A stretch of 32,000 nucleotides of DNA from Synechocystis sp. PCC 6803 substr. PCC-P. Lineage in GTDB: Bacteria > Cyanobacteriota > Cyanobacteriia > Cyanobacteriales > Microcystaceae. A program made the translations under genes and the position numbers. Below the pieces are notes generated by a model. It made no database searches. It saw only the letters and a program-made list of their open reading frames with translations, and had not been told where the DNA came from. The number at the start of each line of letters is the position of its first letter. Position 1 is the first letter of the stretch. Where the stretch lies: the NCBI RefSeq assembly GCF_000284455.1, contig NC_017039.1, forward strand, positions 1,500,001 to 1,532,000. Direction: 5' to 3'. Positions 10,203 to 31,985 of the stretch are shown piece after piece.

Positions 10203-10244
10203 GTGACGTTGCCCAGTTCTAATTAAATTTTTCTCCCTTTTCCC

Positions 10245-10649: not shown

Positions 10650-10699
10650 ATTCTAATGCTGCAAGCCCCCTAGTCAGCGACGAAAATCAAGGGGTCTTG

Positions 10700-11005
10700 A
10701 TGCGGGTAGAGAATATTACCCAAGATCGCCGTACACTGCAGTTGGCGGTGAGCTTACAAAATAATGGCTCGGAGGAAGTGGAGTTTTTGTATAGTTTTTT
10801 GGAAGTCAGGGACCAGGATAATAATTTATTGAGTTCCTTTACTGATTCTTTGCCTCCTTCCTTACCCGGCGATCGCCAAGCGTATAAAGGCACCATCGAG
10901 TTATTTGGCCCGCTGCCGGATTCGGTGCGCAGTGTGTCGATCCGTTTAGCCAGCTATCCCGACGAAAAGGTTAAATTACAGATTGATGCCATTCCCATTC
11001 CTTAG
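10700..11005 (+). CDS. Hypothetical protein (~101 aa)
   Basis: ORF with ATG at 10700 (the track starts one codon earlier, at a TTG). No recognisable motif. Confidence 0.45.
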   Translation: MRVENITQDRRTLQLAVSLQNNGSEEVEFLYSFLEVRDQDNNLLSSFTDSLPPSLPGDRQAYKGTIELFGPLPDSVRSVSIRLASYPDEKVKLQIDAIPIP

Positions 11006-11043
11006 CGGGTTGGATTGCATAGCCCTTAACTAAACTTCAATTT

Positions 11044-12153
11044 ATGCGATCGCCTTTGTTGGCCCCGTCCGAAAAGTGTCAAGCTTGGCCCCGGTTTACT
11101 CCCCCTTGGTATCTATCATCGGGCTTGGCCATGACTCTCTACACTGCCTTTGTGGCCAATCAACGTTGCTTAAACTCAGCCCGGACGAGGGAACCTGAAT
11201 ACATCAGCCAGGTAATGACCGGCTCCCAAGGAGTGCCCCTCCATGTTTGGCGATCGCCCATTCCTTCCCAAGCTAAGGGGACATTAATTGCCACCTATGG
11301 CATCACTGGCTCCCTGGAAGATCAAGGCTTTTTGCGACAATGGGGACGCTGGGCCTATGAACGGCACTATGACGTAATTTTGTTTGACTGGCGCGCCCAC
11401 GGTAAAACGGCGGAACTCTCCCCTACCCTCACCTCCGACGGTTTATATGAAGGGGAAGATTTTGTTTATTTAGCCGCCCAAGCAAAGGCTTTGGGTTACC
11501 CCGGCCCCTTTTGGTTTGGGGGTTATTCCCTGGGGGGTCAGCTTTCTCTCTGGGGGGTTTATAAGGGTCAAACTTTGGCAGATTGGGGTAACAACGACGC
11601 AATGCTAACTTCCTTTTCTCCCACAGACATTGGGGGAGCCATGGCCATTTGCCCTAGCCTTGATTCCCAGCGCTCCCTCAATTATTTAACCAGCCATCCA
11701 GTGGGACGATATTTGGAAAAGGCGATCGCCAACAAGCTGAAGGAATTGGCTTGGCAATTGCATCGTCACCATCCGGGGGAATTTGATTCCCAAGCCATTG
11801 AACGGGCTAATACTATTTGGGGCTTTGACCACAATTTGGTGATCGATCGCCTCGGATTGGCCTCTGTGGAAGATTATTACGAAGTCAGCAGTGCCTTGCC
11901 CCTGTTGAGCAAAATTGTTAAACCAACCCTATTGCTCTACGCCGCCGATGATCCCATGTTCCATCCCGCCATAGTAGAAGAATTACCCGGCTTGCAAAAC
12001 CAACTTACCGGTGTGGATTTACAGATAACCCCCAAGGGTGGCCATGTGGGCTACATTGCCAATGGTCCCTGTCAGCAGGCTAGCAACGACCCGGACGAAA
12101 ATTGGGCGATTCACCGCACCCTAGATTGGTTAGATCAAAAATCTTTGGCCTAA
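11044..12153 (+). CDS. Alpha/beta-fold hydrolase (YheT-like)
   Basis: 369 aa. Nucleophile elbow GGYSLGG. Later ...YAADDPMF... and ...GGHVGY... are consistent with the Asp and His of the catalytic triad. Confidence 0.75.
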   Translation: MRSPLLAPSEKCQAWPRFTPPWYLSSGLAMTLYTAFVANQRCLNSARTREPEYISQVMTGSQGVPLHVWRSPIPSQAKGTLIATYGITGSLEDQGFLRQWGRWAYERHYDVILFDWRAHGKTAELSPTLTSDGLYEGEDFVYLAAQAKALGYPGPFWFGGYSLGGQLSLWGVYKGQTLADWGNNDAMLTSFSPTDIGGAMAICPSLDSQRSLNYLTSHPVGRYLEKAIANKLKELAWQLHRHHPGEFDSQAIERANTIWGFDHNLVIDRLGLASVEDYYEVSSALPLLSKIVKPTLLLYAADDPMFHPAIVEELPGLQNQLTGVDLQITPKGGHVGYIANGPCQQASNDPDENWAIHRTLDWLDQKSLA

Positions 12154-12185: not shown

Positions 12186-13056
12186 GAGCGTGTTTGAAAA
12201 GTAGGGTGAAGAATGGAAAATGGTGAAAAGAATAAAATTTTCACCATAATTAATGATAATTCGAGAATTTTACAGCACGGACATCACAGATAGCCAGTGG
12301 CAATTGGTAGAACCCCATTTACCCAAAGCAAAAACTGGGGGAAGAAAACGGAAAACTAGTCTGCGGGAGATACTCAATGCTATTTTTTACATGCTCAGAA
12401 CGGGGTGTGCCTGGCGACTTCTGCCCCATGATTTTCCTAAATGGCGAACGGTCTATGGTTATTTCCAGCAATGGCACGAAGATGGTACCTGGAAAAAATT
12501 AAACCGTATCTTCCGTGAGAAAGTTCGGCTCAAAGCTGGAAGAAATACTCACCCTAGTGCCGGTTGTTTAGATTCACAGTCACTTAAAAAGGCTGGAACT
12601 GGCCAAGAAACTGGCTATGACGGCGGAAAAAAGGTCAATGGTCGTAAACGCACAATCCTCGTGGATACCATGGGATTACTTCTCGATGTTGTGGTTCACA
12701 GCGCTCATCGCTCTGACCATCAGGGTCTGATTCTACTTGCTACCTGGTTTGCTCCCCTTTGGCAGTGCCTGCAAGTTATATGGACTGACAGCACCTTTGG
12801 CGGAAAGGATTTTATTTTCTGGGTGGAGCATACTTTTGGTTGGACCTTGAATGTGGTCAGCAAAAAGCAGGGACAAAAAGGCTTTGAAGTCCTACCCCGC
12901 CGTTGGGTAGTCGAGCGCACTTTTGCTTGGTTTGGTCGTTATCGTCGTTTAAGCAAGGATTATGAATATTTACCTACCACCAGTGAGACCATGCTCTATG
13001 GTGCCATGGTTCATCTCATCCTTCAAAGGCTTGCTTAAAACTTTTCAAACACTTTC
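12186..13056 (+). mobile_element. IS5-family insertion sequence (IS1031-like group; possibly the element catalogued as ISY523 in Synechocystis), 871 bp
   Basis: 17-bp terminal inverted repeats: GAGCGTGTTTGAAAAGT at 12186-12202 and its complement-like ACTTTTCAAACACTTTC at 13040-13056 (15/17 match). TAA lies on both flanks (12183-12185 and 13057-13059), as expected for a 3-bp target duplication. A single DDE transposase ORF sits inside. Confidence 0.85.
12253..13038 (+). CDS. IS5-family DDE transposase
   Basis: 261 aa. N-terminal ...SQWQLVEPHLP...GRKRK...REILNAIFYMLRTGCAWRLLP... (insertion-element DUF4096-type HTH). DDE region ...ILVDTMGLLL..., ...IWTDSTFGG..., ...VVERTFAWFGRYRRLSKDYE. Confidence 0.92.
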   Translation: MIIREFYSTDITDSQWQLVEPHLPKAKTGGRKRKTSLREILNAIFYMLRTGCAWRLLPHDFPKWRTVYGYFQQWHEDGTWKKLNRIFREKVRLKAGRNTHPSAGCLDSQSLKKAGTGQETGYDGGKKVNGRKRTILVDTMGLLLDVVVHSAHRSDHQGLILLATWFAPLWQCLQVIWTDSTFGGKDFIFWVEHTFGWTLNVVSKKQGQKGFEVLPRRWVVERTFAWFGRYRRLSKDYEYLPTTSETMLYGAMVHLILQRLA

Positions 13057-14696: not shown

Positions 14697-15452
14697 CTAA
14701 GCCAGCAAAGAAGTGGAAGAAGAGGCTTCCTGCCCTTGGAGCGATCGCCAAAATTGTTGTAGTTGAAATGCGGTTATCTCTGGATGCTCAAACTGAAAAA
14801 AGTATTTTCCTTCAGGACATAACCAAAGGCGATCGCCAGGCTTTTTCCAGCGTTGCCAACCATTAAATAAACTGGTGTCAATGATGCCATCTGTTTCTCC
14901 CACCGCCACCAAGAGGGGCACAGCAATGTGGTTGGGCAAAATAATTAATTGCTTATACAAACTATGGGGAGAAATGGAAGTTAATAGATCATTTTCCAAA
15001 ATATTAACAATGGTTTGGGTTTGACGTAGGGAACGACAATTAAATAGATGGTGGGCCATTTGACCAAGGAGCAAATGACGGCTGTAACGCATGGCATCAA
15101 ATTGGCTGTAATAATGGGCTTGCCAGTCGAGGGCAGGATATACACCAACGGAGAGTAGGGAGAGGGAACGGACTTTTTCGGGACATTGTCGGGCGTACAA
15201 TAAAGCTAACAATCCACTGGTGCTATGACCAATTAAATGGACAGGTTGGTGAAAATTTTCCAGGTATTCTCCGATTAAATCTAATCCCACTGTTAGACAA
15301 TTGGGTTCGTCAGCAGTTTGATGATAATCCCATTGCAAAATAGCCTGACTTTTGCCTAATTGTCGTAGTAGAGGACGATCAAAACGCCGCAGAGCAGGAC
15401 TAAAATTAAGCCAAATGATAGGTGTTTCCGGGGGCATATTCTGGTTTGTCAT
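14697..15452 (-). CDS. Alpha/beta-fold hydrolase downstream of isiB (isiC-type position in the iron-stress operon)
   Basis: 251 aa. Nucleophile-elbow-like HLIGHSTSG (a GxSxS variant of GxSxG), plus later Asp and His candidates. Same strand as isiAB. Confidence 0.7.
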   Translation of the reverse strand: MTNQNMPPETPIIWLNFSPALRRFDRPLLRQLGKSQAILQWDYHQTADEPNCLTVGLDLIGEYLENFHQPVHLIGHSTSGLLALLYARQCPEKVRSLSLLSVGVYPALDWQAHYYSQFDAMRYSRHLLLGQMAHHLFNCRSLRQTQTIVNILENDLLTSISPHSLYKQLIILPNHIAVPLLVAVGETDGIIDTSLFNGWQRWKKPGDRLWLCPEGKYFFQFEHPEITAFQLQQFWRSLQGQEASSSTSLLA

Positions 15453-15686
15453 GGTAGGAGTCCGGCTGGGGGGAGATTCTTAGACAAAAAATTAAATGAA
15501 GTGAGGAGTAGCAAGTAAATTATTCGAGTCAGCATTATTTGCAGGTTGATCAAAACCGGGCAGAGCTAGAAACAACCCTGACAAAAGATCAGATTTTCAA
15601 GATAAGTTCAAGCAACATTAATTATTGCCAGTGTCAATGAACTATTGGGATCTTGGTAGTGATCAGCCGGCAAAAGCTTAGGTTAC

Positions 15687-16199
15687 CTAGGATTGCAAAA
15701 TTGGTTTAATTTCACTTACCCATGTCTTTACTCTTAATTCTGTTAACTCTGGCTGATTATCTTCGTCCAAAGCTAAACCAACAAATTTCCCATTTTTCAC
15801 CGCTTTTGATTCGTCAAAATCATAGCCAGCGGTGGGCCAAAACCCCACTGTTTTACCGCCTAATCCACTGATTTTTTCTTCTAAAATGCCCATGGCGTCT
15901 TGAAAATTATCTGCATAACCAACCTGATCGCCAGCACCAAAATAGGCTACTTTTTTGCCATTAAAATCAATTTCGTCTAATTGGTCATAAAAGCCTTCCC
16001 AATCACTCTGGAGTTCCCCCACATTCCAGGTGGGACAACCGATAATCAGGCAACTATATTGCCTAAAATCATCAACATCAGCCTGGGATATATCCATCAT
16101 ATCGACCACACTATCGCCGCCCATTTCTTTTTGAATCAGTTCAGCAATGGTTTCAGTGTTGCCGGTTTGAGTACCGTAAAAAAGTCCAATTTTTGTCAT
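15687..16199 (-). CDS. isiB: Long-chain flavodoxin
   Basis: 170 aa. MTKIGLFYGTQTGNTETIAE...GCPTWN.GELQSDW... are classic flavodoxin FMN-binding motifs. Lies downstream of isiA. Confidence 0.97.
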   Translation of the reverse strand: MTKIGLFYGTQTGNTETIAELIQKEMGGDSVVDMMDISQADVDDFRQYSCLIIGCPTWNVGELQSDWEGFYDQLDEIDFNGKKVAYFGAGDQVGYADNFQDAMGILEEKISGLGGKTVGFWPTAGYDFDESKAVKNGKFVGLALDEDNQPELTELRVKTWVSEIKPILQS

Positions 16200-16603: not shown

Positions 16604-17632
16604 CTAGGTTTGCAAGGAATCAAACGCTTGTTCGACCCGTTTGAAGTCAAAACCCAAAGCCCGCAGTGCGTGCCAGAGGTGGCCTTGGAGGAAGAAAAAG
16701 GCCAGGAAGAAGTGAGCGTTGGCTAACCAAGCCCGGCTGGTGTGGGCATGCATGGGCAGTTCCACCGTATCGGCAAAATAGGGAAAAATGCCCAATTTAA
16801 TTGCCAAAGGCGGGCCGTAAAATTCTGGCGGATAGGCCAGGGTGTTGACTGCACAGAAATAGGCCGCCACAAATCCAGCTAGGGCAATGCCCCCCAGGGA
16901 ATAGGACAAAATGGCTTCCCCGGAAAAGAGCAGAACTTTTTTAGCCCAACCCAGAGGGGGCACCAGAATGTGCCAAATGCCTCCACCGATGAGCAGAAAA
17001 CCGACAAAAATATGTCCCCCCACCAGATCTTCTAGGCTACTGATGCTGGCAAAATGGGTTTGATAACCATAAATAACCAAAGGATCTAATGTTGGCTGAC
17101 TGACTAGGCGCACCGTTTGGGTGGTGGCGTCGTACAATCCCCCCCAATACATGGCTTTGCCTGCCAACAGTAGAGCTCCGGCCCCCAGGAACAGGAGATG
17201 ATGACCCAAAATTATCCCTAGTTGCTGGGGGTTTTCCCACGTGAAATGGAATTTTTTGCCCTGGCCCTTAAGGGTACTGAGGTCAGCGGGGGCCCGCAGG
17301 GTATGAAACAAAGCCCCAGCCCCCAGTACCGCTGAAGCAATCAGGTGAATACTACCAATGACAAAGTAGGGATAGGTATCCACAATTTGTCCGCCATCGC
17401 CCACACCCCAACCGAGGGTAGCCAAATGGGGCAGTAGAATTAATCCCTGGTCTCCCATGGCCTGGGTGGGATCAAATCGGGAAATTTCAAACAGGGTAAA
17501 GGCTCCGGCCCAAAATGCTGTTAAAGCCGCCTGGGCCACATGGGCCGCAATAAAAAGCCCAGACTGATCAGCGAAACGGGCATTGCCGGCCCACCATTCG
17601 TACTGAACGGTGTCGTTGCCATAGGTTTGCAC
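16604..17632 (-). CDS. isiA: Iron-stress-induced chlorophyll-binding protein IsiA (CP43')
   Basis: 342 aa. [37 protein letters not shown]... is CP43-like but lacks the large lumenal loop. The start is GTG at 17632, with AAGGAGG 7 nt upstream. Confidence 0.97.
17080..17260 (+). ncRNA. isrR: Approximate position of the IsrR-type cis-antisense RNA to isiA (boundaries are a guess)
   Basis: A ~177-nt antisense RNA from the non-coding strand of the central part of isiA is documented for Synechocystis 6803. On the + strand I see only weak support: TTGATA at 17060-17065, a TCTAAT -10-like hexamer about 19 nt later, and a T6 run at 17251-17256. Exact ends cannot be derived from the sequence alone. 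Confidence 0.3.
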
Positions 17633-22554: not shown

Positions 22555-22737
22555 CTAGGGGAGGAGTGAATTTTTCATCAAATCCCGGATCAGGTTATCC
22601 CGCACCATGATTTGTTGCATGGTTTCTAGTAAATAGTTAACGGTCTGCTCCCGGTCTAGTTCTTGATATTCCTGTTGCAAACACTGCAGTTGAAATTTCT
22701 GCTCTAAGGATAGGTTAAAGGCTTCGTTGTTGATCAT
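22555..22737 (-). CDS. nblA2: Phycobilisome degradation protein NblA (second copy)
   Basis: 60 aa. MINNEAFNLSLEQKFQLQCLQQ...MVRDNLIRDLMKNSLLP shows the NblA helix-loop-helix signature. Paralogous to the adjacent ORF. Confidence 0.92.
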   Translation of the reverse strand: MINNEAFNLSLEQKFQLQCLQQEYQELDREQTVNYLLETMQQIMVRDNLIRDLMKNSLLP

Positions 22738-22823: not shown

Positions 22824-23012
22824 TTAACCTAGGGGCTCCAGGGGAGCCTGGCGCATTAAGTCCCGGATGACGTTGGATTTAATCATCAACAGTCGAGAGG
22901 CTTGGACCAAAAGTTCCAGGGCTTGCTCCTGGCTGATGTTGGCGGTGGCATCCTGCATGCGACGGAACTCAAACATTTGTTCAATGGTGAGATCGAAGGA
23001 TTCAGGTTTCAT
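22824..23012 (-). CDS. nblA1: Phycobilisome degradation protein NblA (first copy)
   Basis: 62 aa. MKPESFDLTIEQMFEFRRMQDA...MIKSNVIRDLMRQAPLEPLG. GGAGGG lies 9 nt upstream of the ATG. Confidence 0.92.
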   Translation of the reverse strand: MKPESFDLTIEQMFEFRRMQDATANISQEQALELLVQASRLLMIKSNVIRDLMRQAPLEPLG

Positions 23013-23075: not shown

Positions 23076-23595
23076 AAAAAGTTGACCCAATTAACAGTAT
23101 CTGCTTATACAAGCTTGCCCAAAACGGGGGGCAAACCTAGCAACCCAGGGAAAAAATAGGTTTTAAGTCCGCTGAATTTAGTCAACATCGGGGACACCCT
23201 GCACATGTGGTTTGTTTTAGCAAGGGCTTTTAGAAAAAAATGCTCAATCTGAACATCTCCCATGACATTTCGCTTGGCGATCGCCGAGGAGGAGGAGGCT
23301 AAACTGTTCGTCTTTTTGGCTTTCACCACGTAGATAACAGTACGAGTTATTGGGTCATTGAATTATTAACAATATAACTATTTGCTGATTTTTATACTTG
23401 CAAATTTTAGATCTAATTGTATTAGTCTTCTATAGTAGAAATATAAGGAAATCAAATTTTCAAATTTTCATCTTGAAAAACATAAAATTTATTCATTATT
23501 TGTTAATCGTTGCCCCATCAATTTGTCGTTAAAATGGTTAATAGGGCTAGAAGAGCGAAGTATTTGTATTTGCCGAAAATTTCAGGAGCAAAACA

Positions 23596-24114
23596 ATGCG
23601 AATCAACCATAAGCCTCTATTAATTGCCACTGCCTTACTAACTCTCGTGCCCAATGTTGTTTGGTCTTCTCCCTTTGATGAAGATCAGGAGATTTGTCCC
23701 CAGTGGGAATGCGATCAGGCGGGAAATTGCCGCAAACTTGATCTTACCTGCGGTTCTTCCCCAGATTCTTCTGGTGCTCAGGGCTATCAATTATATTTTG
23801 ATGGGGAATTAGTGTCTGGCCCCGACGCCCAGGGTTATACATCCCAACAAGCGAAAGAAAATTGTACTTGGAATATGCAAACTAAACCGCAAATGCATAT
23901 CCGCTGTCTCTACAATGGCCAGGTCTTCGGTGATCGCCCTCCTAGTAACTCTCCTGGGTATGAACTATATTTTGATGGGGAATTAGTGTCTGGCGCCGAC
24001 GCCCAAGGTTATACGTTCCAACAAGCGGAAGAAAATTGCATTTGGAATATGCAAACCAAACCGCAAATTCACATTCGCTGTCTTTACAATGGCCAGGTCT
24101 TTAGGGAGCGGTGA
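23596..24114 (+). CDS. Secreted Cys-containing protein built from a tandem-duplicated ~58-aa domain
   Basis: 172 aa. AGGAG lies 7 nt upstream of the ATG. Signal peptide [24 protein letters not shown], then a Cys-rich stretch ([19 protein letters not shown]). Two copies follow of [43 protein letters not shown]. No family recognised. Confidence 0.75.
23782..24102 (+). repeat. 174-bp tandem duplication inside the secreted-protein gene
   Basis: Unit cores at 23782-23928 and 23956-24102 align without gaps at a 174-bp (58-codon) offset. By eye they show about 17 mismatches in ~148 nt. Confidence 0.9.
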
Positions 24115-24232: not shown

Positions 24233-25210
24233 ATGACTACTCCCGTTTTTTGTACTAATTGTGGCAACCGCCTTAGCCCCCAGGTTCGTTTCTGTGAATC
24301 CTGTGGATGTCCCGTTGCCTTGACGTCGGAGCCACCTTCCTTTTCTGGACCACCATTGTCCCCATTGCCTCCTCCCCCTCCCACCTTTAATGTCGATGAA
24401 GTTCCATCCCATAAAAGAGGGGTAACTCCTTGGATTCCTTTTTTCCTGTTATTTAGTTCTGTCGTTGTATTAGGGGGACTTTGGTGGTTGGGAGCGTTCA
24501 ATCTGCCCCAATGGAATCAATGGCTAGTAAAAATTTTGCCCACCAATACCAGTTCCCCCGTTGTTACTTCCCCTACTCCGACGGTGGCTCCCGTTGATGC
24601 CAATGCCGTAAGTTTAGAAGATTTTGTTGGCGTCTGGATGGTCATGGAAGGGGCGCCGGGGGAAGGCGGGGAAGCTATTTTTACCATGAGCTTGGAAGGA
24701 AATGTCATTGTTGTTGAGGCTGAAGGCGATCGCGTGGAATTCCCTACACTCAATGGCCGAAAACTAGAGGGCAGTGTAGTTGAAGACGGTGTAACTATCC
24801 CGATAACAGTGGAACTAAATCAGAATAAAGACCAGATTATTGTTACTGTTCTTCCCCCCAACAGTGAACTACAAGTGGGAGTGGGGCAGAGGGTAAAAGG
24901 AATTGATGATTTGGATAGTCCATCTAACTCAAGGGATAATTCCCTTAACATAGATGAAAATGTTTTAACGGAACGGCAAGCCTTAGAGCTTTTGATTGCT
25001 TGGCCGGAGATTGCGGATTGGATGCAGAGAGTTCAACAGGAAGCCCCACAGAATCAGACTCTTCTAGAAATTGTGGAAACCACCCCGCAACAATACCTAA
25101 TTCGGGCTTATGAATCTGTTAATAACCCTGGAGAACCGGGTCATACAGCTACGTTTGGTTGGTATAACGTCGATCGCCAAACCGGGGAGGTGACTCAAAG
25201 TATTCCCTAG
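24233..25210 (+). CDS. N-terminal zinc-ribbon, single-pass membrane protein with a C-terminal extracytoplasmic domain
   Basis: 325 aa. Ribbon CTNCGNRLSPQVRFCESCG, Pro-rich linker, TM (WIPFFLLFSSVVVLGGLWWLGAF), Thr/Ser/Pro linker, then a ~200-aa domain ending ...YLIRAYESVNNPGEPGHTATFGWYNVDRQTGEV (PepSY-like flavour; not verified). No Shine-Dalgarno. Confidence 0.7.
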   Translation: MTTPVFCTNCGNRLSPQVRFCESCGCPVALTSEPPSFSGPPLSPLPPPPPTFNVDEVPSHKRGVTPWIPFFLLFSSVVVLGGLWWLGAFNLPQWNQWLVKILPTNTSSPVVTSPTPTVAPVDANAVSLEDFVGVWMVMEGAPGEGGEAIFTMSLEGNVIVVEAEGDRVEFPTLNGRKLEGSVVEDGVTIPITVELNQNKDQIIVTVLPPNSELQVGVGQRVKGIDDLDSPSNSRDNSLNIDENVLTERQALELLIAWPEIADWMQRVQQEAPQNQTLLEIVETTPQQYLIRAYESVNNPGEPGHTATFGWYNVDRQTGEVTQSIP

Positions 25211-25251: not shown

Positions 25252-26202
25252 ATGCCCAAAAATATGTCACCAATCTGTCCCGTTTGCGGACAAGAAAATG
25301 ATGCCGCAAATCGCTATTGTTCCTTTTGCGGTACTCGGTTTAATTCATCCTTGCCATCGATGGATCTTTTTCAGGCTCAAACAGTGCAAGCCCCAGCCCC
25401 AGAGCAAATGGTCTTCTCTGGCAATGGGCAAGATTTACCCAGTTTGACCAATCATCCTTTTTGGGGCGCAATTCCTGTGCTTGGATTGCTGACGGTTCTG
25501 CCCCTGGGACTTTTTATCTTCGGCATGGCCATTGATGCCAACGATTGGCCCTATGCGGCCCTACTGGTTTTTCTGCTATTTTTATTCACATTGCTAATTT
25601 TTCTTGGACAGCTTTGGGGCAATGTATCCCAGGCGAGGGAATTTATCCTTAGTGAGCGGCCATTGATCCTTTGGCGTTATAGCCCCGATGAATGGCAACA
25701 GCTTCGACAGGCTCAATTCAGTGAATCCGCCGAGGATATGCAAGAAATGGCCGGCTGTGCAGTCCCCTTTTTTGCTGGGGTGGGAACTTTGCTCGGTACT
25801 GTCCTTGGTTCTGTGGAAGGCTTTGTGGGGGCCGTGCCAGGGGCGGCGATCGGTGCCATGGCCGGATACATTTTTGGCAAAATATTGGTTCCCATAGCCA
25901 CTGGTTTGAACCAATCTACCAACCGGGAATTGTATCGAACCGATTTGCCTGTTTGGGTGGTGCTAGCTCCAGGGGAAATTTATTATAACCGTCAATATTT
26001 TCGAGCTGATACCATTGGCGATCGCCTTGAAGGGATTACCCTAGATGAAGGTGCTCTGACCTGGTTGCGTATCGAAACCTTCGCCCCCCGGGGTAGCATC
26101 ACAGCTAGTTTTGACGGCAACATTTTAGTCCCCCATCGTATGTTAGCAACCGTTAAAGCAGTTTTACCGCAATTGCAGCAATTCATCTCCGGGGAAGATT
26201 AG
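25252..26202 (+). CDS. N-terminal zinc-ribbon membrane protein with a glycine-zipper segment and a PH-like C-terminal region
   Basis: 316 aa. AAGGAG lies 7 nt upstream. Ribbon CPVCGQENDAANRYCSFCG. Two TM helices (about residues 70-120). Gly-zipper AGVGTLLGTVLGSVEGFVGAVPGAAIGAMAGYIFG. The C-terminal ~90 aa is possibly bacterial-PH-like (unverified). Confidence 0.7.
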   Translation: MPKNMSPICPVCGQENDAANRYCSFCGTRFNSSLPSMDLFQAQTVQAPAPEQMVFSGNGQDLPSLTNHPFWGAIPVLGLLTVLPLGLFIFGMAIDANDWPYAALLVFLLFLFTLLIFLGQLWGNVSQAREFILSERPLILWRYSPDEWQQLRQAQFSESAEDMQEMAGCAVPFFAGVGTLLGTVLGSVEGFVGAVPGAAIGAMAGYIFGKILVPIATGLNQSTNRELYRTDLPVWVVLAPGEIYYNRQYFRADTIGDRLEGITLDEGALTWLRIETFAPRGSITASFDGNILVPHRMLATVKAVLPQLQQFISGED

Positions 26203-27449
26203 GATTTGACCCCCAAAACAAAGCCACAATTGCCACAGAACTTCGCTCCGGCGGTAGGAGTATGGCCACATTGGGGACAGATTTGGGGTTTTGGCGGTTC
26301 CATTACCGCAACGGACGTACCGCAATGGGTACAGAATTTATCTCCTTCCTGTAAAGATTGATGACAAGCTTGGCAATAGTTGGGGGTTGAGGCTCCAGGC
26401 AAAGGCTCGAGAGATGAAGATGTAGTCTGTGTTCCTAATGATTGAGAATAAGAATCTATTTGTGGTTTTCCTACAGGAGTAAAAATCTCATCTAAAAGCT
26501 CATAGGCTTTATCAAGGCTAATACTGACTACAGAGACTAAACCATTGGGAGAAGGATCAATATCAAAAAACCATAATGAGTTTTCGGCACGAATTAACAA
26601 AGCCCCTTGCCTACCAAGTAGATTTGTTTCATTATACCCAAGAAGATCGATGGCCAGTATACAAAGACGTCGATGTAAAGATGAAATGAGAAATAGCCCA
26701 CTTTCTGTCCAAGCTATTTTGTCGCCATCACTTTCAATTAATTGACGTTGAGTCAATCTTTTGATTGTATTTAAAAAAGTGCTTTGGTCAATTGTTTGTA
26801 GTTCTTGAGGAAGGAAATGAATAATTGACCAAAATAAATAGCGCTGATCTTCATACTCTGTTACGTTGTCATAAGCCTGCAGTAAATCCTCAATTGAAAT
26901 TGACAAGGGAACTGGTTGATGCAGGATCAATGAAGCGTACTGAATACGACTATATATATCAACTAAAGCAACCAATACAGAAAACTCAGTGAGAGTACAC
27001 TGAAACGAAACATCCGTCTCCCATATGGGTGATCCAGGCTCAATATAAGCGAAGAGTGAGTTAACGAGAACATCACGCCCCTCAACGGGTTGAATTTTGT
27101 AATCTTGGCCGTCATTGACTGGGGCAATAAATAACCAAGGGGCATCATCCTCAATTTTTCCTGTCAATGCCCAAGTCCGCAGTTGACTTATCTGATGGTA
27201 ATAAATGCGAATATCAGCTAATAACAATGGATTGGCAAGAAAAGAAATCCAGTTGATGATTTCTTGATCTAATGGGGATGAAGAATTGATCCACTGATCA
27301 ACACTTGTGTCGTCTTGATTTATATTTTCTTCAGTCTCTACAAATACCTTGCCAAGGATACTTAAAGGTAGACGAAAATGTGATATTAAAAGATTTATAG
27401 ATTTTCTTGGTATAAGTAATGATTCTTTTTTTTTAATAAAATCAATCAT
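26199..27449 (-). CDS. AT-rich gene for a 416-aa protein with a C-terminal double zinc ribbon
   Basis: GGGAG lies 9 nt upstream of the ATG. The N-terminal ~340 aa has no recognisable motif. The C-terminus carries CQACHQSLQEGDKFCTHCG and CPQCGHTPTAGAKFCGNCG. Sampled 60-nt lines are about 30-37% G+C, and there is no HIP1. Confidence 0.75.
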   Translation of the reverse strand: MIDFIKKKESLLIPRKSINLLISHFRLPLSILGKVFVETEENINQDDTSVDQWINSSSPLDQEIINWISFLANPLLLADIRIYYHQISQLRTWALTGKIEDDAPWLFIAPVNDGQDYKIQPVEGRDVLVNSLFAYIEPGSPIWETDVSFQCTLTEFSVLVALVDIYSRIQYASLILHQPVPLSISIEDLLQAYDNVTEYEDQRYLFWSIIHFLPQELQTIDQSTFLNTIKRLTQRQLIESDGDKIAWTESGLFLISSLHRRLCILAIDLLGYNETNLLGRQGALLIRAENSLWFFDIDPSPNGLVSVVSISLDKAYELLDEIFTPVGKPQIDSYSQSLGTQTTSSSLEPLPGASTPNYCQACHQSLQEGDKFCTHCGTSVAVMEPPKPQICPQCGHTPTAGAKFCGNCGFVLGVKS

Positions 27450-27499
27450 AATTTATAGCTCCCAATAAATAGGTTAAATCCGTAAAAACAACAAAGAGC

Positions 27500-30289
27500 T
27501 CAAGTCAATCGCCCAGCTTGAAGATCAACAAGTATTCTATTTTTCATTGCTGCAATTTGTTCTGGTTTTAAGATTTTATCTCCTGCCGAATAAATAACAA
27601 TATCTTGCGCAACAATATCATTTGGAGATTTATTTTTAGGGTAGGTGAACAAAGTTTCTTTTTTGCCAATTTTGTCCCAAGCTCCTGCCTCATTAAAGTT
27701 AATTTCAGCATGGTTACCATTGGGTCGGTACTTACAAACATTTATTTGCTCTTTACGACTAAGCTCCTCCATTGAAGTCATAGCAACATCATCATGACCA
27801 CCTTGACCTTCAACTGGTCTGCCTTCTAACTGTGGTTTAACTTTGTTCTTGATTGCATTGTATTCAGCCTCAGTTATTTTGTTTGCTTTTTTTAAATTGC
27901 TAGCAATCTCTAAACGTTGCTCAGGACTCAAATTTTCTGTTTCATTGAGAATTTTATTGACTACATTCTGCCGAATTTGATATTTCGGAATAGTTGAGTT
28001 AGTTTGCTGGGGCGTAGTTGCTGTTTTAGTAGGGGTTTGCTGAGGGGGAGGCGTTGATTTAGCTGGAGTTTGCTGGGGCGTGGTTGCTGTTTTAGTAGGG
28101 GTTTGCTGAGGGGGAGGCGTTGATTTAGCTGGAGTTCGCTGGGGCGTAGTTGCTGTTTTAGTAGGGGTTTGCTTGGGCGTGATTATTGATTTAGCCGGAG
28201 TTCGCTGGGGCGTGATTGTTGGTTTAGTGGGAGCTTGTTGAGGAGGATGAGCCAGCTTACCAGAAATAATTGGTTTTATAGCTCTTATGGTTCGATTCAA
28301 AATTTCCCCCATATACAATGATGTGGCGGCGGTTTCCATTGCTCTACGACTTCCTTCTATGATGCTGTCTCCTCCTTGAGCCACATATTCTTTGGAGCTA
28401 ATAATTGCCTGAGTTGGAATCAAAATAGCTTCTGAAGCTCCACCTGTTAAGTAAGCAGCGCCAATTCTACCGGCCAGTCTTAACCAAGAAAATTGTCCGT
28501 CTTCTCCCCTAACAGTGGCAAGCTGTTTTGTTGTTTCCATCGCCGCATCAACTGTAGAGTCAAACCAAATATCAGGTTGTGGTATTTGATTGGCAGTGAG
28601 TATTCGACCAGAAATTTTATCTGAATAAAGTTTTCCCAAAGCCTGTAATTTTTGCCTATCAATTGGATCACCAGAGGCAATTTGCTCTCCTAATCGAGAT
28701 AGTTGTGCCATAACGTCTCCTGGTTGTCCAGGATTCATCAAATCTCCTAATCCCATTTTTCCTTCGAATATATCCTTTTCCATCTGGCTGATTCTATTGA
28801 GTAGGTGTTGTCGTTCTTCATAGTCAGCTTTAATCGCCTGCAATGCTTGACTTTGAGCATCTTGGCCCGTTGTTTCTAGGTATTCGTTGCGGCGACGCCA
28901 ATCTTCAGTTTGCTGATGGGTGCTCAGATTATTTTGATGCCAAGCATTGATTTCATTTGGGTCAATTAATCCTCCGGTGAGGATGTTGATGTAGCCTCCC
29001 TTTTCGGGATCATAGACAAGGGTGGTGTGCCGTCCATCGGGATAGGTATATTCAATGTCTTGGGGAAACGTTGTTGCACCAGGAGTGGTGGAAATAACAC
29101 CAGAGCTTGCCATGGAAGCTGAGGGAATTTGTAAACCCCCTAAAATCCATCCGAGCCAAATTGCCAAACCAGCTAAACCACTATTTAAAATAGCTTGGTC
29201 AGTTCCTCCACATTGAATCCAAGTTTGCAGGCTCTGACCACATTCAGCCCAACCGCCGTCATCGGCCCAGACCGGTTCCATTTGCCCTAATGTCAAACTC
29301 CCCGCAGTGAAGATAATAAATAGGGAGAGAGCAGAAGTTGTTGACCGCTTTCCGCTAAAGAATTGCCACAACGTAACGGCGATCGCCGCGATGAAGAATA
29401 GTCGCAGTAGGGAGGGAGCCAGCCAGAGAAGGAGAGCCGCTAGGCCAAAACCCACAGCCATACCAGAGAGAAGTTGTTGGCACTGGTCAGAGGTCAGAGG
29501 GTGGAGAGATTTACCCTTGCGGATCAGTTTTTGGGCATCTTGCCAACTAAGTTTGAGCACTAAGCGGAGAAAGTGAGTGGATTCCTGGAGTGCCACTAGG
29601 GTAAATAACAGAATCTGGAGACTGACCAGAAGATTGCCAAACAACAAAGCAAATACCAACGCCCCGGAAAAGCCCAACCATAGAATAGGAGCTTTGAACT
29701 GGCTACTCTGTTGGCAAAAACTGACGACTGTAGCAGGGAAAGACGTGATCGCTTTAAGATATTGCCCCAGGGTACCGTGTATTAATTGGGACAATAGTAT
29801 TCCCGTGAAAATCCAGAATAAACTACCTGCAATCACCTCACCGCCTAATACTAAAACGGAATCGAACCAGGGATTGGTACCAGTGAGATTAAACCCGTCA
29901 TTGACGACAACGAGTAGAAAAAGATGAAGCAGCCAAACAATAACAATGAGAAAAATTCCTAAAACTATTTGCTTGGGAATTCCTTTGAGTACCGAACCGG
30001 CGAGCCAGCCGAGGAGTTGTCCCAAGTTTTGGGGTTCTTTCATTTGTTGGGTTAATGCTGTTCCTGGCGGTGAATCGGTTGCTTCTTTAGGTGGATTCTT
30101 GCGTTCCCAAGCTTGGCCATTCCAACAGAGCCACATACCACCGGGATGTTCAATGTGCCACCAGTTCCCCTGGGCATCCTGCACCCGAAGACGGTCTAAC
30201 CAAGCAGTAAATTCTGTTGCTGAAATATGACGCTCATGCAACTGCTGACACCAATCATAATACATTTGCTCGGCTTCGACAAAGTCCAT
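27500..30289 (-). CDS. 929-aa polytopic membrane protein with a Pro/Thr-rich repeat linker and an AT-rich C-terminal module
   Basis: AGGAGA lies 9 nt upstream of the ATG, inside the 3' end of the preceding gene. The N-terminal ~100 aa is Trp-rich (..DAQGNWWHIEHPGGMWLCWNGQAWERKNPP). About 8 hydrophobic helices span residues ~105-400, followed by a ~280-aa soluble region. Seven-plus copies of an 11-aa unit (QTPTKTATTPQ / QTPAKSTPPPQ) come next, then a ~165-aa C-terminal module. No family recognised. Confidence 0.8.
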   Translation of the reverse strand: MDFVEAEQMYYDWCQQLHERHISATEFTAWLDRLRVQDAQGNWWHIEHPGGMWLCWNGQAWERKNPPKEATDSPPGTALTQQMKEPQNLGQLLGWLAGSVLKGIPKQIVLGIFLIVIVWLLHLFLLVVVNDGFNLTGTNPWFDSVLVLGGEVIAGSLFWIFTGILLSQLIHGTLGQYLKAITSFPATVVSFCQQSSQFKAPILWLGFSGALVFALLFGNLLVSLQILLFTLVALQESTHFLRLVLKLSWQDAQKLIRKGKSLHPLTSDQCQQLLSGMAVGFGLAALLLWLAPSLLRLFFIAAIAVTLWQFFSGKRSTTSALSLFIIFTAGSLTLGQMEPVWADDGGWAECGQSLQTWIQCGGTDQAILNSGLAGLAIWLGWILGGLQIPSASMASSGVISTTPGATTFPQDIEYTYPDGRHTTLVYDPEKGGYINILTGGLIDPNEINAWHQNNLSTHQQTEDWRRRNEYLETTGQDAQSQALQAIKADYEERQHLLNRISQMEKDIFEGKMGLGDLMNPGQPGDVMAQLSRLGEQIASGDPIDRQKLQALGKLYSDKISGRILTANQIPQPDIWFDSTVDAAMETTKQLATVRGEDGQFSWLRLAGRIGAAYLTGGASEAILIPTQAIISSKEYVAQGGDSIIEGSRRAMETAATSLYMGEILNRTIRAIKPIISGKLAHPPQQAPTKPTITPQRTPAKSIITPKQTPTKTATTPQRTPAKSTPPPQQTPTKTATTPQQTPAKSTPPPQQTPTKTATTPQQTNSTIPKYQIRQNVVNKILNETENLSPEQRLEIASNLKKANKITEAEYNAIKNKVKPQLEGRPVEGQGGHDDVAMTSMEELSRKEQINVCKYRPNGNHAEINFNEAGAWDKIGKKETLFTYPKNKSPNDIVAQDIVIYSAGDKILKPEQIAAMKNRILVDLQAGRLT
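28003..28246 (-). repeat. 33/66-bp in-frame tandem repeat array encoding the Pro/Thr/Gln-rich linker
   Basis: 66-bp units begin at 28005, 28071, 28137 and 28203. Units 28005-28070 and 28071-28136 differ at a single base. Each 66-mer consists of two related 33-mers. Confidence 0.92.
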
Positions 30290-30291
30290 GG

Positions 30292-31314
30292 TTACTTGTC
30301 TCCTAATTTCAGCAGTTGTTCAGCAGGAATATAGTTAACGCCGTCCTTGGTACCAATCCAAAAGTTGCCCGCCTGATCTTCCAGCATGACTTTTACCTCT
30401 TGGTTGGCTAACCCATCTGCTTCCGTCAGGGTTAACCAGTTTTCTCCTGCTAAACGAGCTAGGCCGTCATTTTCTGAGCCGAGCCAAAGCACCCCTTGGC
30501 GGTCTTGGTAAATGGAGCGTACTTTGGCCCCGGCCAATCCGTTTGCCGCTGTTAAGGTTTTTCGGACTACCCAGCCAGAGTTATTGGCTTCCAGTTGGGC
30601 CGCTCCGCCTCGGTCAAAGAAACCAGTTCCGACCCAAACCTTATTGCTGTCCTTGATCCAGAGGCTCGTAATATTATTATGGGGCAGTCCATTGCTGGTA
30701 GAGAATTTTTGACAGGTTTTCTTAAGACAATAATTGAGGCCACCCCGGGGAGCCACAGAGGAACCGAACCACATCCCCCCCTGAGAGTCTTGGGCAATGA
30801 GATTAATCATTAAATCTGGTAAACCATCAGCCATTCCTAACCAACGCCATCCCGCTTTTTCTTTCACCGCCGCCCCCTGCCAAGTGCCAATCCACAACTG
30901 CCCCTGGCGATCGAGATAGAGGGTATTGATGGGTTCACGGAAGCGGGAATCATCCGATTGATAAGCTTGGCAACGTTGACCGTCGTAATAGCTCAGTCCT
31001 TTGTTATGGGCAATCCAGAGCCAGTTTTGTCGATCAAGAACTAAAGCCTGGACAAAATTAACCGGGGGATCGCAGGTGATGGTTTTAACAATTTCTCGCT
31101 TTTGGATATCAATACCCACCACGCCATCTTTTCCCCCAGACCAAAGTATTTGATTCTGTAAAACCAGAGCTGACACTTCGTGGGGGGGACGAATTATTTG
31201 CCAACCAGGGCGTCTTTTGGATTGGAAATTGCGCCGCATTAAACCCAATAACTCCACAGAGAGGATCACAAAAATGCCCAATAGCAACAGAAAACGCCAT
31301 GGTTTCATTTTCAC
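30292..31314 (-). CDS. Membrane-anchored 7-bladed beta-propeller protein (two-component-regulator-propeller / Reg_prop-type repeats)
   Basis: 340 aa. N-terminal anchor WRFLLLLGIFVILSVELLGL. Seven repeats of the type LW.G...G (LWSGGKDGV, LWIAHNKGL, LWIGTWQGA, MWFGSSVAP, VWVGTGFFD, LWLGSENDG, FWIGTKDGV). AGGAGG lies upstream. The track start is GTG at 31314, but the ATG at 31308 has better SD spacing. The TAA stop lies 2 nt before the next gene's ATG. Confidence 0.75.
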   Translation of the reverse strand: MKMKPWRFLLLLGIFVILSVELLGLMRRNFQSKRRPGWQIIRPPHEVSALVLQNQILWSGGKDGVVGIDIQKREIVKTITCDPPVNFVQALVLDRQNWLWIAHNKGLSYYDGQRCQAYQSDDSRFREPINTLYLDRQGQLWIGTWQGAAVKEKAGWRWLGMADGLPDLMINLIAQDSQGGMWFGSSVAPRGGLNYCLKKTCQKFSTSNGLPHNNITSLWIKDSNKVWVGTGFFDRGGAAQLEANNSGWVVRKTLTAANGLAGAKVRSIYQDRQGVLWLGSENDGLARLAGENWLTLTEADGLANQEVKVMLEDQAGNFWIGTKDGVNYIPAEQLLKLGDK

Positions 31315-31328
31315 AAAGCCTCCTGGGC

Positions 31329-31985
31329 TCAGGGATTGGAATGGGGGACTAATTGACCGTCCCGGAGAAGCTGAATATCCGAGGTTAGAAATTGGGCTTC
31401 AGCTAAATCATGGGTGACGTAGAGGGTACAAGCCTGGGTGAAGTCTAAGTAATCCTGAAGATAGGTTAGTAGCTCTTCTTTTAAACCTTGATCAAGGTTG
31501 GAAAGGGGTTCATCCAACAGTAAAAAAGGCGGCCGGGGAGCTAGGGTACGGGCAAAGGCTACCCGTTTAGCTTCTCCTCCCGATAGTTGGTGGGGATAGC
31601 GATCTATCAGGGGGGCAATAGCTAATCGTGCTAACAATGGCTCAATGCGTTCTTGTTGCTCTGTTTTGCTAAGGTGGGCGAGGCCAAAAGCGATGTTTTG
31701 CTGGACAGTGAGATGGGGCCAGAGAGCCGGAGATTGAAAAACAAAACCAATACCCCTTTGGTGGGGCGGTAGATAATGCTGGGGACAACTAACCTGGCGA
31801 TCGCCAAGGTAAATTTCTCCTCCATCCAGGCGATCGAGACCAGCAATCAGTCGCAGGAGGGTGGTTTTACCGCTACCGGAACGGCCAAGAATGGCAGTTT
31901 TTCCCCCTGGAGGAATAGTTAGACATAGTTGCCGTAACACCGCCACGGAACCATAGGTTTTGCTCACCTGTTCAACTCTGATCAT
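31329..31985 (-). CDS. ABC transporter ATP-binding subunit (short, 218 aa)
   Basis: Walker A GRSGSGKTT, signature LSGGEAKR, Walker B FLLLDEP, H-loop YVTHD. Resembles importer-type (Fe3+/polyamine/sulfate class) ATPases but lacks the C-terminal regulatory domain. Any partner permease would lie beyond the window. Confidence 0.9.
   Translation of the reverse strand: MIRVEQVSKTYGSVAVLRQLCLTIPPGGKTAILGRSGSGKTTLLRLIAGLDRLDGGEIYLGDRQVSCPQHYLPPHQRGIGFVFQSPALWPHLTVQQNIAFGLAHLSKTEQQERIEPLLARLAIAPLIDRYPHQLSGGEAKRVAFARTLAPRPPFLLLDEPLSNLDQGLKEELLTYLQDYLDFTQACTLYVTHDLAEAQFLTSDIQLLRDGQLVPHSNP

Follow-up and report, generated by a model that had tools for sequence, protein, structure and literature searches.

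In the window, the 32,000-nt stretch of a Synechocystis-type cyanobacterium analysed here to which all coordinates refer, the tail of a 929-aa polytopic membrane protein and the body of the 416-aa protein encoded downstream are swapped between strains as matched AT-rich cassettes, with two nested exchange units. The best explanation of the whole, which we hold to be somewhat probable, is that the products of the two genes bind each other as cognates within a multi-gene membrane system that is rare and uncharacterised. The pair is polymorphic and has a polymorphic-toxin-like layout; its belonging to that kind is unproven. Both same-strand ORFs and the 50-bp spacer between them are confirmed. 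The features of the locus are as follows.

23596–24114, plus strand: 172-aa secreted protein with two ~50-aa Cys-containing repeat copies (internal duplication, homologues).
24233–25210, plus strand: 325-aa convergent neighbour, having a zinc ribbon at its N-terminus and a TM segment (Pfam Zn_Ribbon_1).
25252–26202, plus strand: 316-aa protein carrying a zinc ribbon at its N-terminus, a glycine zipper (DUF6861), and TM segments (Pfam, synteny).
26199–27449, minus strand: 416-aa partner gene (ORF, AF2, Foldseek, Pfam).
26199–26408, minus strand: zinc-ribbon tail of the partner, residues 348–416, right homology arm of the outer cassette (resumed identity, GC3, Pfam DZR).
26409–28841, minus strand: outer exchange cassette, 2.43 kb, GC 0.390 (no blastn similarity between conserved flanks).
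27243–28000, minus strand: inner exchange cassette, 758 bp, GC 0.332 (comparison with S. salina).
27500–30289, minus strand: 929-aa polytopic membrane protein gene (ORF, hydropathy and positive-inside rule, homologues).
27500–27997, minus strand: orphan terminal module, residues 765–929 (sequence searches, AF2).
28001–28247, minus strand: Pro/Thr-rich tandem-repeat linker, left breakpoint of the inner cassette (TRF).
28248–28841, minus strand: class-A mid-domain, residues 484–681, predicted all-helical (homologue comparison, AF2 secondary structure).
28842–30289, minus strand: conserved body, residues 1–483, left homology arm of the outer cassette (nucleotide identity, junction alignment).
30292–31314, minus strand: 340-aa membrane-anchored Reg_prop beta-propeller gene (Pfam Reg_prop 5.9e-31).

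The 929-aa protein is composed of an N-terminal soluble domain of ~100 aa, about eight TM segments, an acidic Cys-pair loop, a conserved core (DIEYTYPDGR...GGYINILTGG...TGQDAQSQAL), and a variable tail. Residues 1–100 are conserved in loci L001–L005 and in one Nitrospirae paralogue, which supports the assigned start. Loops rich in Lys and Arg alternate with loops free of them, fitting an N-in, 8-TM, C-in arrangement; by hydropathy and the positive-inside rule, the variable tail is predicted to be cytoplasmic. In two relatives (P0006 and P0008), a signal peptide, a Cys-rich ectodomain, and one TM segment precede the same core. Gly-rich amphipathic stretches are present in every tail class.

The outer cassette comprises residues 484–929 of the membrane protein, the spacer, and residues 1–347 of the partner. 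Identity to Synechocystis CACIAM 05 is 97.4% as far as position 28842, undetectable to 26408, and 97.2% thereafter. Blastn finds no similarity between the outer cassette and loci L001, L002, L005, and L006, though the flanks are conserved. Nucleotide identity in the conserved body is 97.4% for CACIAM 05, 83% for L002, 88% for L005, and 81% for L006; the alignments all stop at 28820–28847, and identity restarts at 26408 in L001 (97%) and at 26375–26408 in L002, L005, and L006. The breakpoints are sharp and common to four independent loci with flanks 81–97% identical, and two loci beyond CACIAM 05 bear other alleles broken at the same two points. The four loci bear three further allele classes, one of which is common to L001 and L005, and there are at least four classes. 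Between alleles, the tails are 15–25% and the partner bodies 18–24% identical, compared with 72–98% for the N-terminal body. The zinc ribbons are the conserved flank, outside the cassette.

The inner cassette contains the terminal module, the spacer, and partner residues 1–69. The repeat linker that forms its left breakpoint, previously placed at 28003–28246 and found at 28001–28247, has a period of 66/33 bp (66 bp × 3.7, giving 22-aa units) and varies in copy number: an 885-aa form is short by 44 aa, and S. salina has one more 11-aa unit. Blastn identity to S. salina stops at 28001, the exact end of the repeat array. Identity is 35–41% (random level) over 27900–27505 and 52–62% where the partner gene begins, versus 85–96% in the surrounding flanks. 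The S. salina terminal module is unrelated to that of the window, and the partner body is nevertheless 95–97% identical, indicating that the partner as a whole does not co-vary with the terminal module and that its first ~70 residues alone do so.

These comparisons bear out the earlier proposal that the C-terminal region was exchanged separately from the conserved multi-TM body, since identity breaks against CACIAM 05, further loci, and S. salina; the collapse of identity among orthologues and the alternative cassettes for which it suggested looking are both found. The position of the break was correct in part. The repeat linker is the boundary of the inner cassette (28001, S. salina), but the main exchange point follows ...TGQDAQSQAL (residue 483), 280 residues upstream of the linker. 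A unit made of the last 165 aa and the whole downstream gene matches neither 27243–28000 nor ~26409–28841.

The base composition of the cassette departs from that of its surroundings. GC3 is 0.25–0.30 in the cassette and 0.51 ± 0.06 in the other genes of the window, and all cassette pieces lie below every one of 227 control windows of 165 codons from those genes (0.513 ± 0.060, minimum 0.345; z −3.6 to −4.4), so the AT-rich break that had been noted is real. The terminal module has a GC of 0.354 and a GC3 of 0.248, and partner residues 1–340 have 0.362 and 0.271; overall GC is 0.483 in the window, and the outer cassette has 0.390 versus 0.490 in the remainder. The drop had been described as coinciding with the linker. 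It does occur, yet not as a single step, for GC3 declines gradually along the gene: 0.455 (residues 1–400), 0.324 (401–681), 0.361 (repeat), and 0.248 (terminal module). Likewise, the foreign composition ascribed to the downstream gene holds for residues 1–340 and not for the zinc-ribbon tail (26199–26408, 209 bp), which is normal (GC 0.51, GC3 0.449). The cassettes of other alleles are also GC-poor (0.39–0.44 versus 0.48). The HIP1 sites at 26018 and 29379 enclose no other, as had been seen, but this 3361-bp gap is not significant alone: with 33 sites placed at random in 32 kb, the largest gap has P = 0.66. The absence is meaningful only when pooled: HIP1 is absent from the cassettes of all five alleles, ~7 kb of non-redundant sequence in which, by our own arithmetic, ~7 sites are expected.

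The partner begins with a variable N-terminal arm (residues 1–69), followed by a body (residues ~70–330) into which a winged-helix-like element is inserted; a linker then leads to the double zinc ribbon (residues 358–412). It has eight zinc-binding Cys residues and lacks a signal peptide. The two C-terminal zinc ribbons are confirmed by Pfam (DZR 1.8e-9, Zn_Ribbon_1 7e-11); the last 60 aa match DZR (PF12773), Zn_Ribbon_1, and Zn_ribbon_3 above the cut-offs, though DZR is a generic small module that is uninformative on the 340-aa body, a region outside every Pfam, NCBIfam, PADLOC, and PHROG model. The AF2 model, built from a 12-sequence alignment, is of medium confidence, with a pLDDT of 73 (mostly >85 for residues 130–330) and a pTM of 0.65. 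In a Foldseek search of the PDB, its top 16 matches are all EspG1/3/5 (E 2e-7 to 6e-6; next, 6e-3), with TM-scores of only 0.43–0.51 normalised by target and rmsd of 7–11 Å. EspG being the sole significant structural match, the partner body is predicted to fold like an EspG secretion chaperone; sequence comparison, including Pfam ESX-1_EspG, gives no support for this relationship.

EspG shields the hydrophobic helical tip of cognate PE-PPE substrates in mycobacterial type VII secretion, and the EspG-like EsaE serves the toxin EsaD in T7SSb (PMC12478183). The likeness extends beyond the predicted fold: in both EspG/PE-PPE and the present system, a cytoplasmic protein is paired, class by class, with a helical client that bears a linker and a highly variable C-terminal domain. 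Unlike in EspG systems, the client here is an integral membrane protein, the partner adds the winged-helix-like insert and the double zinc ribbon, and the hosts include diderm cyanobacteria and Nitrospirae. In addition, no EccC/FtsK-type ATPase, other ESX gene, or other export machinery is present near any locus examined, leaving the chaperone analogy with no known destination.

Of the 13 loci whose sequence continues downstream of the large gene, 11 have a partner relative after it; the sources include Nitrospirae and Anaerolineaceae MAGs and metagenomes. A partner-body HMM detects the gene downstream of the large gene in L003, L007, L008, L009, and L011 (E 5e-69 to 9e-9), L013 also has a partner gene, and throughout it is one conserved family of 360–490 aa. 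For the window partner, the bit score is 223 (39%) with L003, a locus of 64% GC, and 192 with L007 from Nitrospirae, but only 30 with L001 and 19 with L002, both of the same genus; the L002 partner reaches 132 bits with L009 (71% GC). By these scores, partner similarity goes with tail class, not with organism. Since only adjacent genes show the co-variation, it could arise from linkage and block transfer alone. The class-A mid-domain is common to S. salina (~90%), L003 (43% over 166 aa), Nitrospirae L007 (34%), and L011, and we propose it as the putative binding site for the partner body. Its AF2 secondary structure is of long helices at low confidence. The AF2 model of the tail is poor (pLDDT 42), so "helical stalk" is a statement about secondary structure only.

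The 929-aa protein would be anchored by about eight TM helices and would present to the cytoplasm a conserved small beta-domain and a helix ending in ...TGQDAQSQAL, followed by the helical stalk (residues 484–681), the Pro/Thr repeat linker, and the exchangeable terminal module (residues 765–929). The 416-aa protein would be the conserved cytoplasmic adaptor of the system, its EspG-chaperone-like body gripping the helical stalk of its own class, its N-terminal arm of ~70 aa pairing with the terminal module, and its double zinc ribbon docking elsewhere. Binding of tail and partner in the cytoplasm is what we infer from the class matching and the topology. Strains would differ through replacement of whole matched units by homologous recombination. 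For tail plus adaptor body, the homology arms would be the conserved body and the stretch coding for the zinc ribbons; for terminal module plus adaptor arm, they would be the repeat linker and the body of the class-A adaptor. The AT-richness and lack of HIP1 may stem from a pool of ancient allele classes shared by horizontal transfer. The polymorphism may be driven by conflict, the variable terminal module then serving as an effector or bait that the adaptor restrains or presents.

The first-pass annotation proposed a polymorphic toxin/immunity pair; in the classical form of this reading, the tail or terminal module would be an exported antibacterial toxin and the 416-aa protein its cognate immunity protein. 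The locus shares several features with CdiA-CT/CdiI, Rhs-CT/RhsI, and PrsW-fused toxins (Zhang et al. 2012, PMC3482391): a conserved N-terminal part, a hypervariable C-terminal part recombined among close relatives, a short conserved junction motif (compare VENN or PxxxxDPxGL), and a next gene that varies in step. PrsW provides a computational precedent for an 8-TM N-terminal scaffold with fused polymorphic toxins, immunity proteins are mostly cytoplasmic binders (PMC3482391), and Gly-rich amphipathic stretches like those of all tail classes occur in some membrane-active toxins. We nevertheless consider this reading unlikely, finding no positive evidence for it. None of the about eight tail types matches a toxin family; domain searches detect neither PrsW nor any domain of the trafficking, secretion, repeat (FHA/RHS), or releasing-peptidase kind; the ORF survey of the window reveals no downstream orphan cassettes; and the variable part is predicted to remain cytoplasmic and tethered. 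In polymorphic toxin systems the downstream protein is small and its family changes with the toxin, whereas the partner is a single family everywhere, with a predicted chaperone-like fold and zinc ribbons, and the right-hand recombination arm lies inside its gene. Moreover, the swap that separates the window from S. salina affects the module and leaves the partner body in place; if the body were the immunity determinant, the new toxin would be unneutralised.

The winged-helix-like insert and the two zinc ribbons raise a different prospect, that the partner binds nucleic acid and is held at the membrane by the tail, to be released when the propeller protein and/or the neighbouring ABC importer senses a signal; the polymorphism would then be incidental. 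Several independent winged-helix matches fall in residues 208–265 (PADLOC WH_III-A 0.0012, HemN_C 0.023, and profiles of ScaR, SloR, HxlR, and CggR), and an H-H-H-beta-beta element is visible in the model; all the matches are weak and sub-threshold, however, and the whole-protein structural match is a chaperone, not a transcription factor. The Synechocystis gene order (SBP, permease, ATPase, propeller, large gene, partner) fits such a regulator, as do the ABC trio adjoining distant L003 and the propeller in L003 and L007, but the trio is missing from L007, L010, and L011, the remaining distant loci of sufficient length for a verdict. At least four unalignable alleles amid 97% identical flanks are unexpected for a housekeeping regulator, and we regard this account as improbable. 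Less likely still, the region may be a dispensable, fast-evolving mosaic of recombined AT-rich foreign DNA, with the terminal module as a functionless orphan extension. The module has only its self-match in phmmer against 1.84 billion representative proteins, no match in a word-indexed search or the PDB, and nothing in Pfam except SHOCT at E 0.084. Its GC3 is very low, its AF2 model is poor (pLDDT 54–70 for three helices at residues ~775–820, <45 elsewhere), and N-terminally shortened gene calls in several complete genomes might mean disruption. Yet its frame is open through 165 codons at 35% GC, for which the chance calculated from base frequencies is ~5e-6; the allele classes are ancient and common to several phyla, with matched partners; the breakpoints repeat at the same sites; and the partner body, at 95–96% nucleotide identity to S. 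salina, exceeds the flank average of 86%, indicating constraint.

The preferred reading, a cognate pair within a multi-gene system, extends to neighbouring genes. The propeller gene stops 2 bp ahead of the start of the 929-aa gene and has homologues directly upstream of the large gene in L003 (40%) and Nitrospirae L007 (48%); by this synteny it is a conserved companion of the system. The link of the 316-aa protein is uncertain: its gene, whose 3′ end overlaps the partner gene by 4 bp, is syntenic in L001, L004, and L005. The 325-aa zinc-ribbon/TM protein is probably a further component; L007 has a homologue, and in L010 and L011 the homologues adjoin the partner gene. So, probably, is the 172-aa secreted protein, whose repeat is ~50% identical to products encoded directly upstream of the large gene in L010 and L011.

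The gene of the 929-aa polytopic membrane protein (hereafter the big protein) and that of the 416-aa double-zinc-ribbon protein (the partner) lie in a stretch of 48.3% G+C with 33 HIP1 octamers. Other genes in the window include isiA-like, flavodoxin and nblA-like genes, and the window is 97% identical to Synechocystis sp. CACIAM 05 across 12 kb. The features discussed are as follows.

31329–31985, minus strand, ABC ATPase gene, first in minus-strand order
30292–31314, minus strand, gene of a 340-aa membrane-anchored Reg_prop beta-propeller, upstream of the 929-aa gene
27500–30289, minus strand, 929-aa gene, starting 2 bp past the propeller stop
28001–28247, tandem repeat, 66 bp x 3.7: the repeat linker noticed by the first-pass annotation
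26199–27449, minus strand, 416-aa partner gene, 50 bp beyond the 929-aa gene, with a C-terminal double zinc ribbon (DZR, 1.8e-9)
~26409–28841, minus strand, outer cassette: tail of the big protein (aa 484–929), spacer and partner aa 1–347
22555–22737 and 22824–23012, minus strand, nblA-like genes

In complete ~3.57-Mb genomes, the gene at 27500–30289 is called as 929, 841, 778, 725, 715, 698 or 686 aa. Compared with the 929-aa call, the shorter ones only lack N-terminal sequence, beginning at alternative starts; this may reflect how the gene was annotated or, in some substrains, a disrupted 5' end.

The tail and most of the partner are exchanged between loci as one block. Identity to CACIAM 05 (L001) is 97.4% over 32000–28842, undetectable to 26408 and 97.2% thereafter. 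The same two breaks occur in L002 (a Logan contig), L005 (a JGI contig) and L006 (an ENA contig); the segment between them is the CACIAM 05 allele in L005 and different sequence in L002 and in L006. When the junctions are aligned, the breaks map after QSQAL (~28841) and to EPLPG (~26418). Together, the shared breaks and the junction alignments define the outer cassette. Among Synechocystis-type loci, the N-terminal part of the big protein is 72–98% identical, and the part past ...TGQDAQSQAL (aa 483) is unalignable (15–25% identity). The partner bodies (aa ~70–330) are 18–24% identical between loci, and the last 70 residues, which form the zinc ribbons, 67–87%. Completely different C-terminal regions thus stand behind a conserved N-terminus, with sharp breakpoints, among close relatives, as in polymorphic toxins. 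The orthologue alignment that the first-pass annotation had proposed therefore gives the outcome it anticipated: identity collapses and alternative alleles are present (L001/L005, L002 and L006).

A smaller cassette is nested in the outer one. S. salina LEGE 06155 (L004) and the window share the body of the big protein, its mid-domain (aa 484–681, ~90%) and the repeat linker. Identity drops to the random level exactly at 28001 and returns at 27242, delimiting an inner cassette at 27243–28000. The S. salina terminal module is unrelated to that of the window (aa 765–929). In the partner, the first ~70 residues (the N-arm) are 40% identical, and residues 91–210 are 97–100% identical. The AT-rich unit had been drawn at 26199–28000; its boundary at 28000 is right for the inner cassette, but that at 26199 is wrong, the inner end being 27243. 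Within the partner body, 26909–27208 has 95–96% nucleotide identity to S. salina versus ~86% in the flanks, which suggests strong constraint or recent exchange. The repeat linker varies in copy number: an 885-aa form of the big protein (42 short-read contigs), which may be real or an assembly collapse, lacks two 22-aa units, and S. salina has one additional 11-aa unit. In Pfam, the S. salina terminal module (L004 5501–5950) matches chalcone-flavanone isomerase below threshold (E 1.6e-4; 21.6 bits, cut-off 27).

The cassettes differ in composition from the rest of the window. The control set, 227 windows of 165 codons from other window genes, has a GC3 of 0.513 +/- 0.060 with a minimum of 0.345.

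GC3 along the big protein and the partner
Big protein aa 1–400: 0.455
Big protein aa 401–681: 0.324
Repeat linker: 0.361
Terminal module, aa 765–929: 0.248
Partner aa 1–340: 0.271
Zinc-ribbon tail of the partner: 0.434

The cassette pieces fall under all 227 control windows (z -3.6 to -4.4), bearing out the aberrant composition noted by the first-pass annotation, and the zinc-ribbon tail is ordinary. The break is not at the linker, as had been thought; GC3 falls gradually, with an onset well before the linker (0.324 in aa 401–681). Nor does the AT-rich interval reach 26199, the last 209 bp (the zinc-ribbon tail) being normal in composition. The reported HIP1 gap is real, with no octamer from 26018 to 29379, but it does not serve as evidence, because 33 randomly placed sites leave a maximum gap this long in 66% of cases (P = 0.66). 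HIP1 is missing from the equivalent segment in all five alleles, and only this pooled absence is informative, not the window gap alone. No relatives that could be a source of the AT-rich DNA were found in viral contigs, plasmids or phages. Elsewhere in the window, an intergenic stretch at 23150–23700, between the nblA-like genes and a 172-aa gene, is AT-rich (GC 0.29–0.32). Two more low-GC3 genes at 14697–16199, encoding a 251-aa protein without a Pfam match (GC3 0.38) and flavodoxin (0.35), adjoin the isiA-like gene (16604–17632). An IS4/IS5-family transposase gene (DUF4096 + DDE_Tnp_1) lies at 12253–13038.

Partner genes are found far outside Synechocystis. Using a partner-body HMM, we detected one downstream of the big gene in L003 (64%-GC metagenome contig; E 5e-69), L007 (Nitrospirae MAG; 7e-62), L009 (71%-GC contig; 1e-24), L011 (4e-18) and L008 (Anaerolineaceae MAG; 9e-9, gene cut by the contig end). 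L013 holds a more distant pair. The partner is therefore a conserved component of the system and a single family, not a variable immunity family. The family is rare: 185,579 species genomes yielded two loci and a metagenome scan one.

Tails fall into classes. The class A mid-domain is present in the window, S. salina, L003, L007 and L011; class B comprises L001 and L005; class C comprises L002, L008 and L009; L006, L010 with the relative P0008, and L012 have other tails. Partner similarity goes with tail class, not with organism: the window partner scores 223 bits against L003 and 192 against L007, versus 30 and 19 against L001 and L002 of the same genus, and the L002 partner scores 132 bits against L009. 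No mismatched tail/partner pair occurs among the 11 loci compared. This pattern is expected of a cognate interacting pair, although block transfer of adjacent genes could also give it. Between the big gene and the partner gene, L003 (4325–5122) and L007 (9855–10646) carry an extra gene of ~264 aa (DUF8367 in precomputed annotation), the two being 38% identical. These loci also have in common a third, larger terminal region, for which the ~264-aa gene product is a candidate third component.

The partner is predicted to adopt an EspG-like fold. Its AlphaFold2 model (12-sequence alignment; pLDDT 73, pTM 0.65, residues 130–330 mostly >85) consists of two four-stranded sheets and helices, with a helix-helix-helix-hairpin element in between. 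In a Foldseek search of the PDB, the top 16 matches are all EspG1/3/5 (probability 1.00, E 2e-7 to 6e-6; TM 0.43–0.51 normalised by target, 0.30–0.32 for two longer EspG1 chains), and the first non-EspG match has an E of 6e-3. The sequence does not match Pfam ESX-1_EspG, and no EspG chain appears among PDB sequences in a profile search run to E = 10. Nothing significant was found among viral structures. Several sub-threshold matches suggest that the central element is winged-helix-like. A profile match to 9SFA (E 1e-5), a Bdellovibrio cyclic-nucleotide-binding protein (PMC12750041), spans the linker and zinc ribbon only and is irrelevant to the body. EspG binds cognate PE-PPE substrates at their hydrophobic helical tip and maintains their solubility, and the same fold is predicted for EsaE, which assists the T7SSb toxin EsaD (PMC12478183). 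The EspG system (T7SSa) comes with T7SS core genes (EccC-type FtsK ATPase etc.) and PE/PPE or WXG substrates; no FtsK/EccC ATPase, PE/PPE, WXG or other known secretion genes were found in the gene-listed loci, the scanned L007 ORFs or the rest of the window.

Hydropathy, charge and inspection predict that the big protein is N-in with ~8 TM segments; its acidic Cys-pair loop (aa 338–365) would lie outside and its C-terminal 540 residues inside. The relatives P0006 and P0008 have a signal peptide, a Cys-rich ectodomain and one TM segment followed by the same core, an architecture that lends independent support to a cytoplasmic C-terminus. The partner has no signal peptide. With the predicted N-in/C-in topology, the cytoplasm is thus where tail and partner would be expected to meet. 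The AlphaFold2 model of aa 400–929 is poor (pLDDT 42) and gives no Foldseek match; its only parts with some confidence are the conserved core (short strands and a long helix, pLDDT 73–80) and three helices at aa ~775–820 (54–70). For the mid-domain this low-confidence model predicts long helices.

Neither the big protein nor the partner body nor any allelic tail has a significant match in Pfam, NCBIfam, PADLOC or PHROGs. Searches of 1.84 billion representative proteins, the PDB and family libraries give no relative for the terminal module. For the P0004 and P0006 tails, PDB sequence searches give only a lectin-repeat match and TPR-like noise. The P0004 tail seemed to us to resemble ExoY/CyaA-type nucleotidyl-cyclase motifs, a reading dropped because no search supports it. 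Likewise, YTYPDGR, which we took to resemble a YD/RHS repeat, has no RHS_repeat match, and the PT-TG pre-toxin domain has none.

The first-pass annotation had likened the locus to polymorphic toxin-immunity systems. The layout is indeed of that kind and the exchange is real; a toxin domain, a trafficking domain and orphan cassettes were looked for and not found. Searches of Pfam, NCBIfam, PADLOC and PDB sequences find no toxin family in any tail type. No trafficking, secretion or releasing-peptidase domain (T2SS, TPS, PAAR/VgrG, WXG/LXG, PrsW, HINT etc.) matches the window protein or seven relatives in Pfam at E <= 0.1. In PrsW-fused toxins the peptidase has 8 TM segments, as is predicted approximately for the big protein, but neither it nor its relatives match PrsW protease. 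No tail-like or partner-like fragments lie elsewhere in the window; the partner gene is directly followed by convergent, conserved genes. The nearest encodes a 316-aa protein (25252–26202) with a zinc ribbon and a glycine zipper (DUF6861); it overlaps the partner gene by 4 bp, leaving no intergenic terminator between them. The downstream gene changes with tail class, yet belongs to a single conserved family of EspG-like fold, and its body is nearly unchanged when the terminal module is swapped relative to S. salina, which argues against the body as the immunity determinant of the module. A classical exported toxin with an immunity protein is one of three rival readings considered; the others are a membrane-tethered regulator linked to the ABC importer, and neutral mosaicism. 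In PADLOC-DB, the big protein, the propeller and the neighbours match no defence model, and the partner gives only a sub-threshold match to WH_III-A.

A class-specific client/adaptor pair is the best-supported reading. The EspG-like partner body would bind the helical stalk of the tail, the terminal module would be paired with the N-arm, and each of these two pairs would be replaced together via recombination arms inside coding sequence. We infer that conflict drives the polymorphism. It is possible, though less likely than not, that the locus is an undescribed conflict system, in which a membrane protein bears exchangeable effector modules on its cytoplasmic tail and a cognate EspG-like chaperone with zinc ribbons holds, neutralises or passes on these modules. 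Such a system would apply type-VII-style substrate/chaperone logic without the type VII machine, as a new delivery route or a membrane-triggered suicide/defence switch. Its companions would be the propeller, a Yip1-like protein, zinc-ribbon TM proteins and small secreted proteins, and its spread would be sparse but wide (Cyanobacteria, Nitrospirae, Chloroflexi and unassigned metagenomic lineages, 37–71% GC).

The polymorphic-cassette theme is known; the big protein and the partner body are covered by no database family. We found no paper describing either protein, including under sll0241–sll0243, our guess at the locus tags. If the pair is a conflict module, it adds a polymorphic system to the cyanobacteria, extends the EspG-type chaperone fold beyond type VII secretion and gives a function to several proteins outside all family databases. 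Polymorphic toxin systems are reported to be relatively rare in cyanobacteria (PMC3482391). Function aside, the nested class-matched cassettes offer a clean example from nature of recombination arms in coding sequence, by which two putatively interacting proteins are jointly replaced. The host is a PCC 6803-type Synechocystis, a genetically tractable model, so the predictions (binding specificity, topology, toxicity and deletion or allele-swap phenotype) are directly testable.

Several neighbours recur at distant loci. In L003 (40%) and L007 (48%), a propeller homologue immediately precedes the big gene. In L010 and L011, the gene in that position shares ~50% identity with the repeat of the 172-aa secreted protein (23596–24114), whose gene contains an internal duplication of ~146 bp (23782–23927 and 23956–24101). 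The 325-aa zinc-ribbon TM protein (24233–25210) has similar counterparts next to the partner gene in L010 and L011 and one in L007, and the Yip1-like membrane protein is also present in loci of the second architecture. L007 (SCQH01000002.1) contains two side-by-side sub-systems.

1288–6028: propeller, 864-aa protein paralogous to the N-domain and TM body but lacking the DIEYTYPDG core, 327-aa DZR protein
6119–12022: Yip1-like protein, 166-aa protein, 880-aa big protein, 263-aa protein, 492-aa DZR partner
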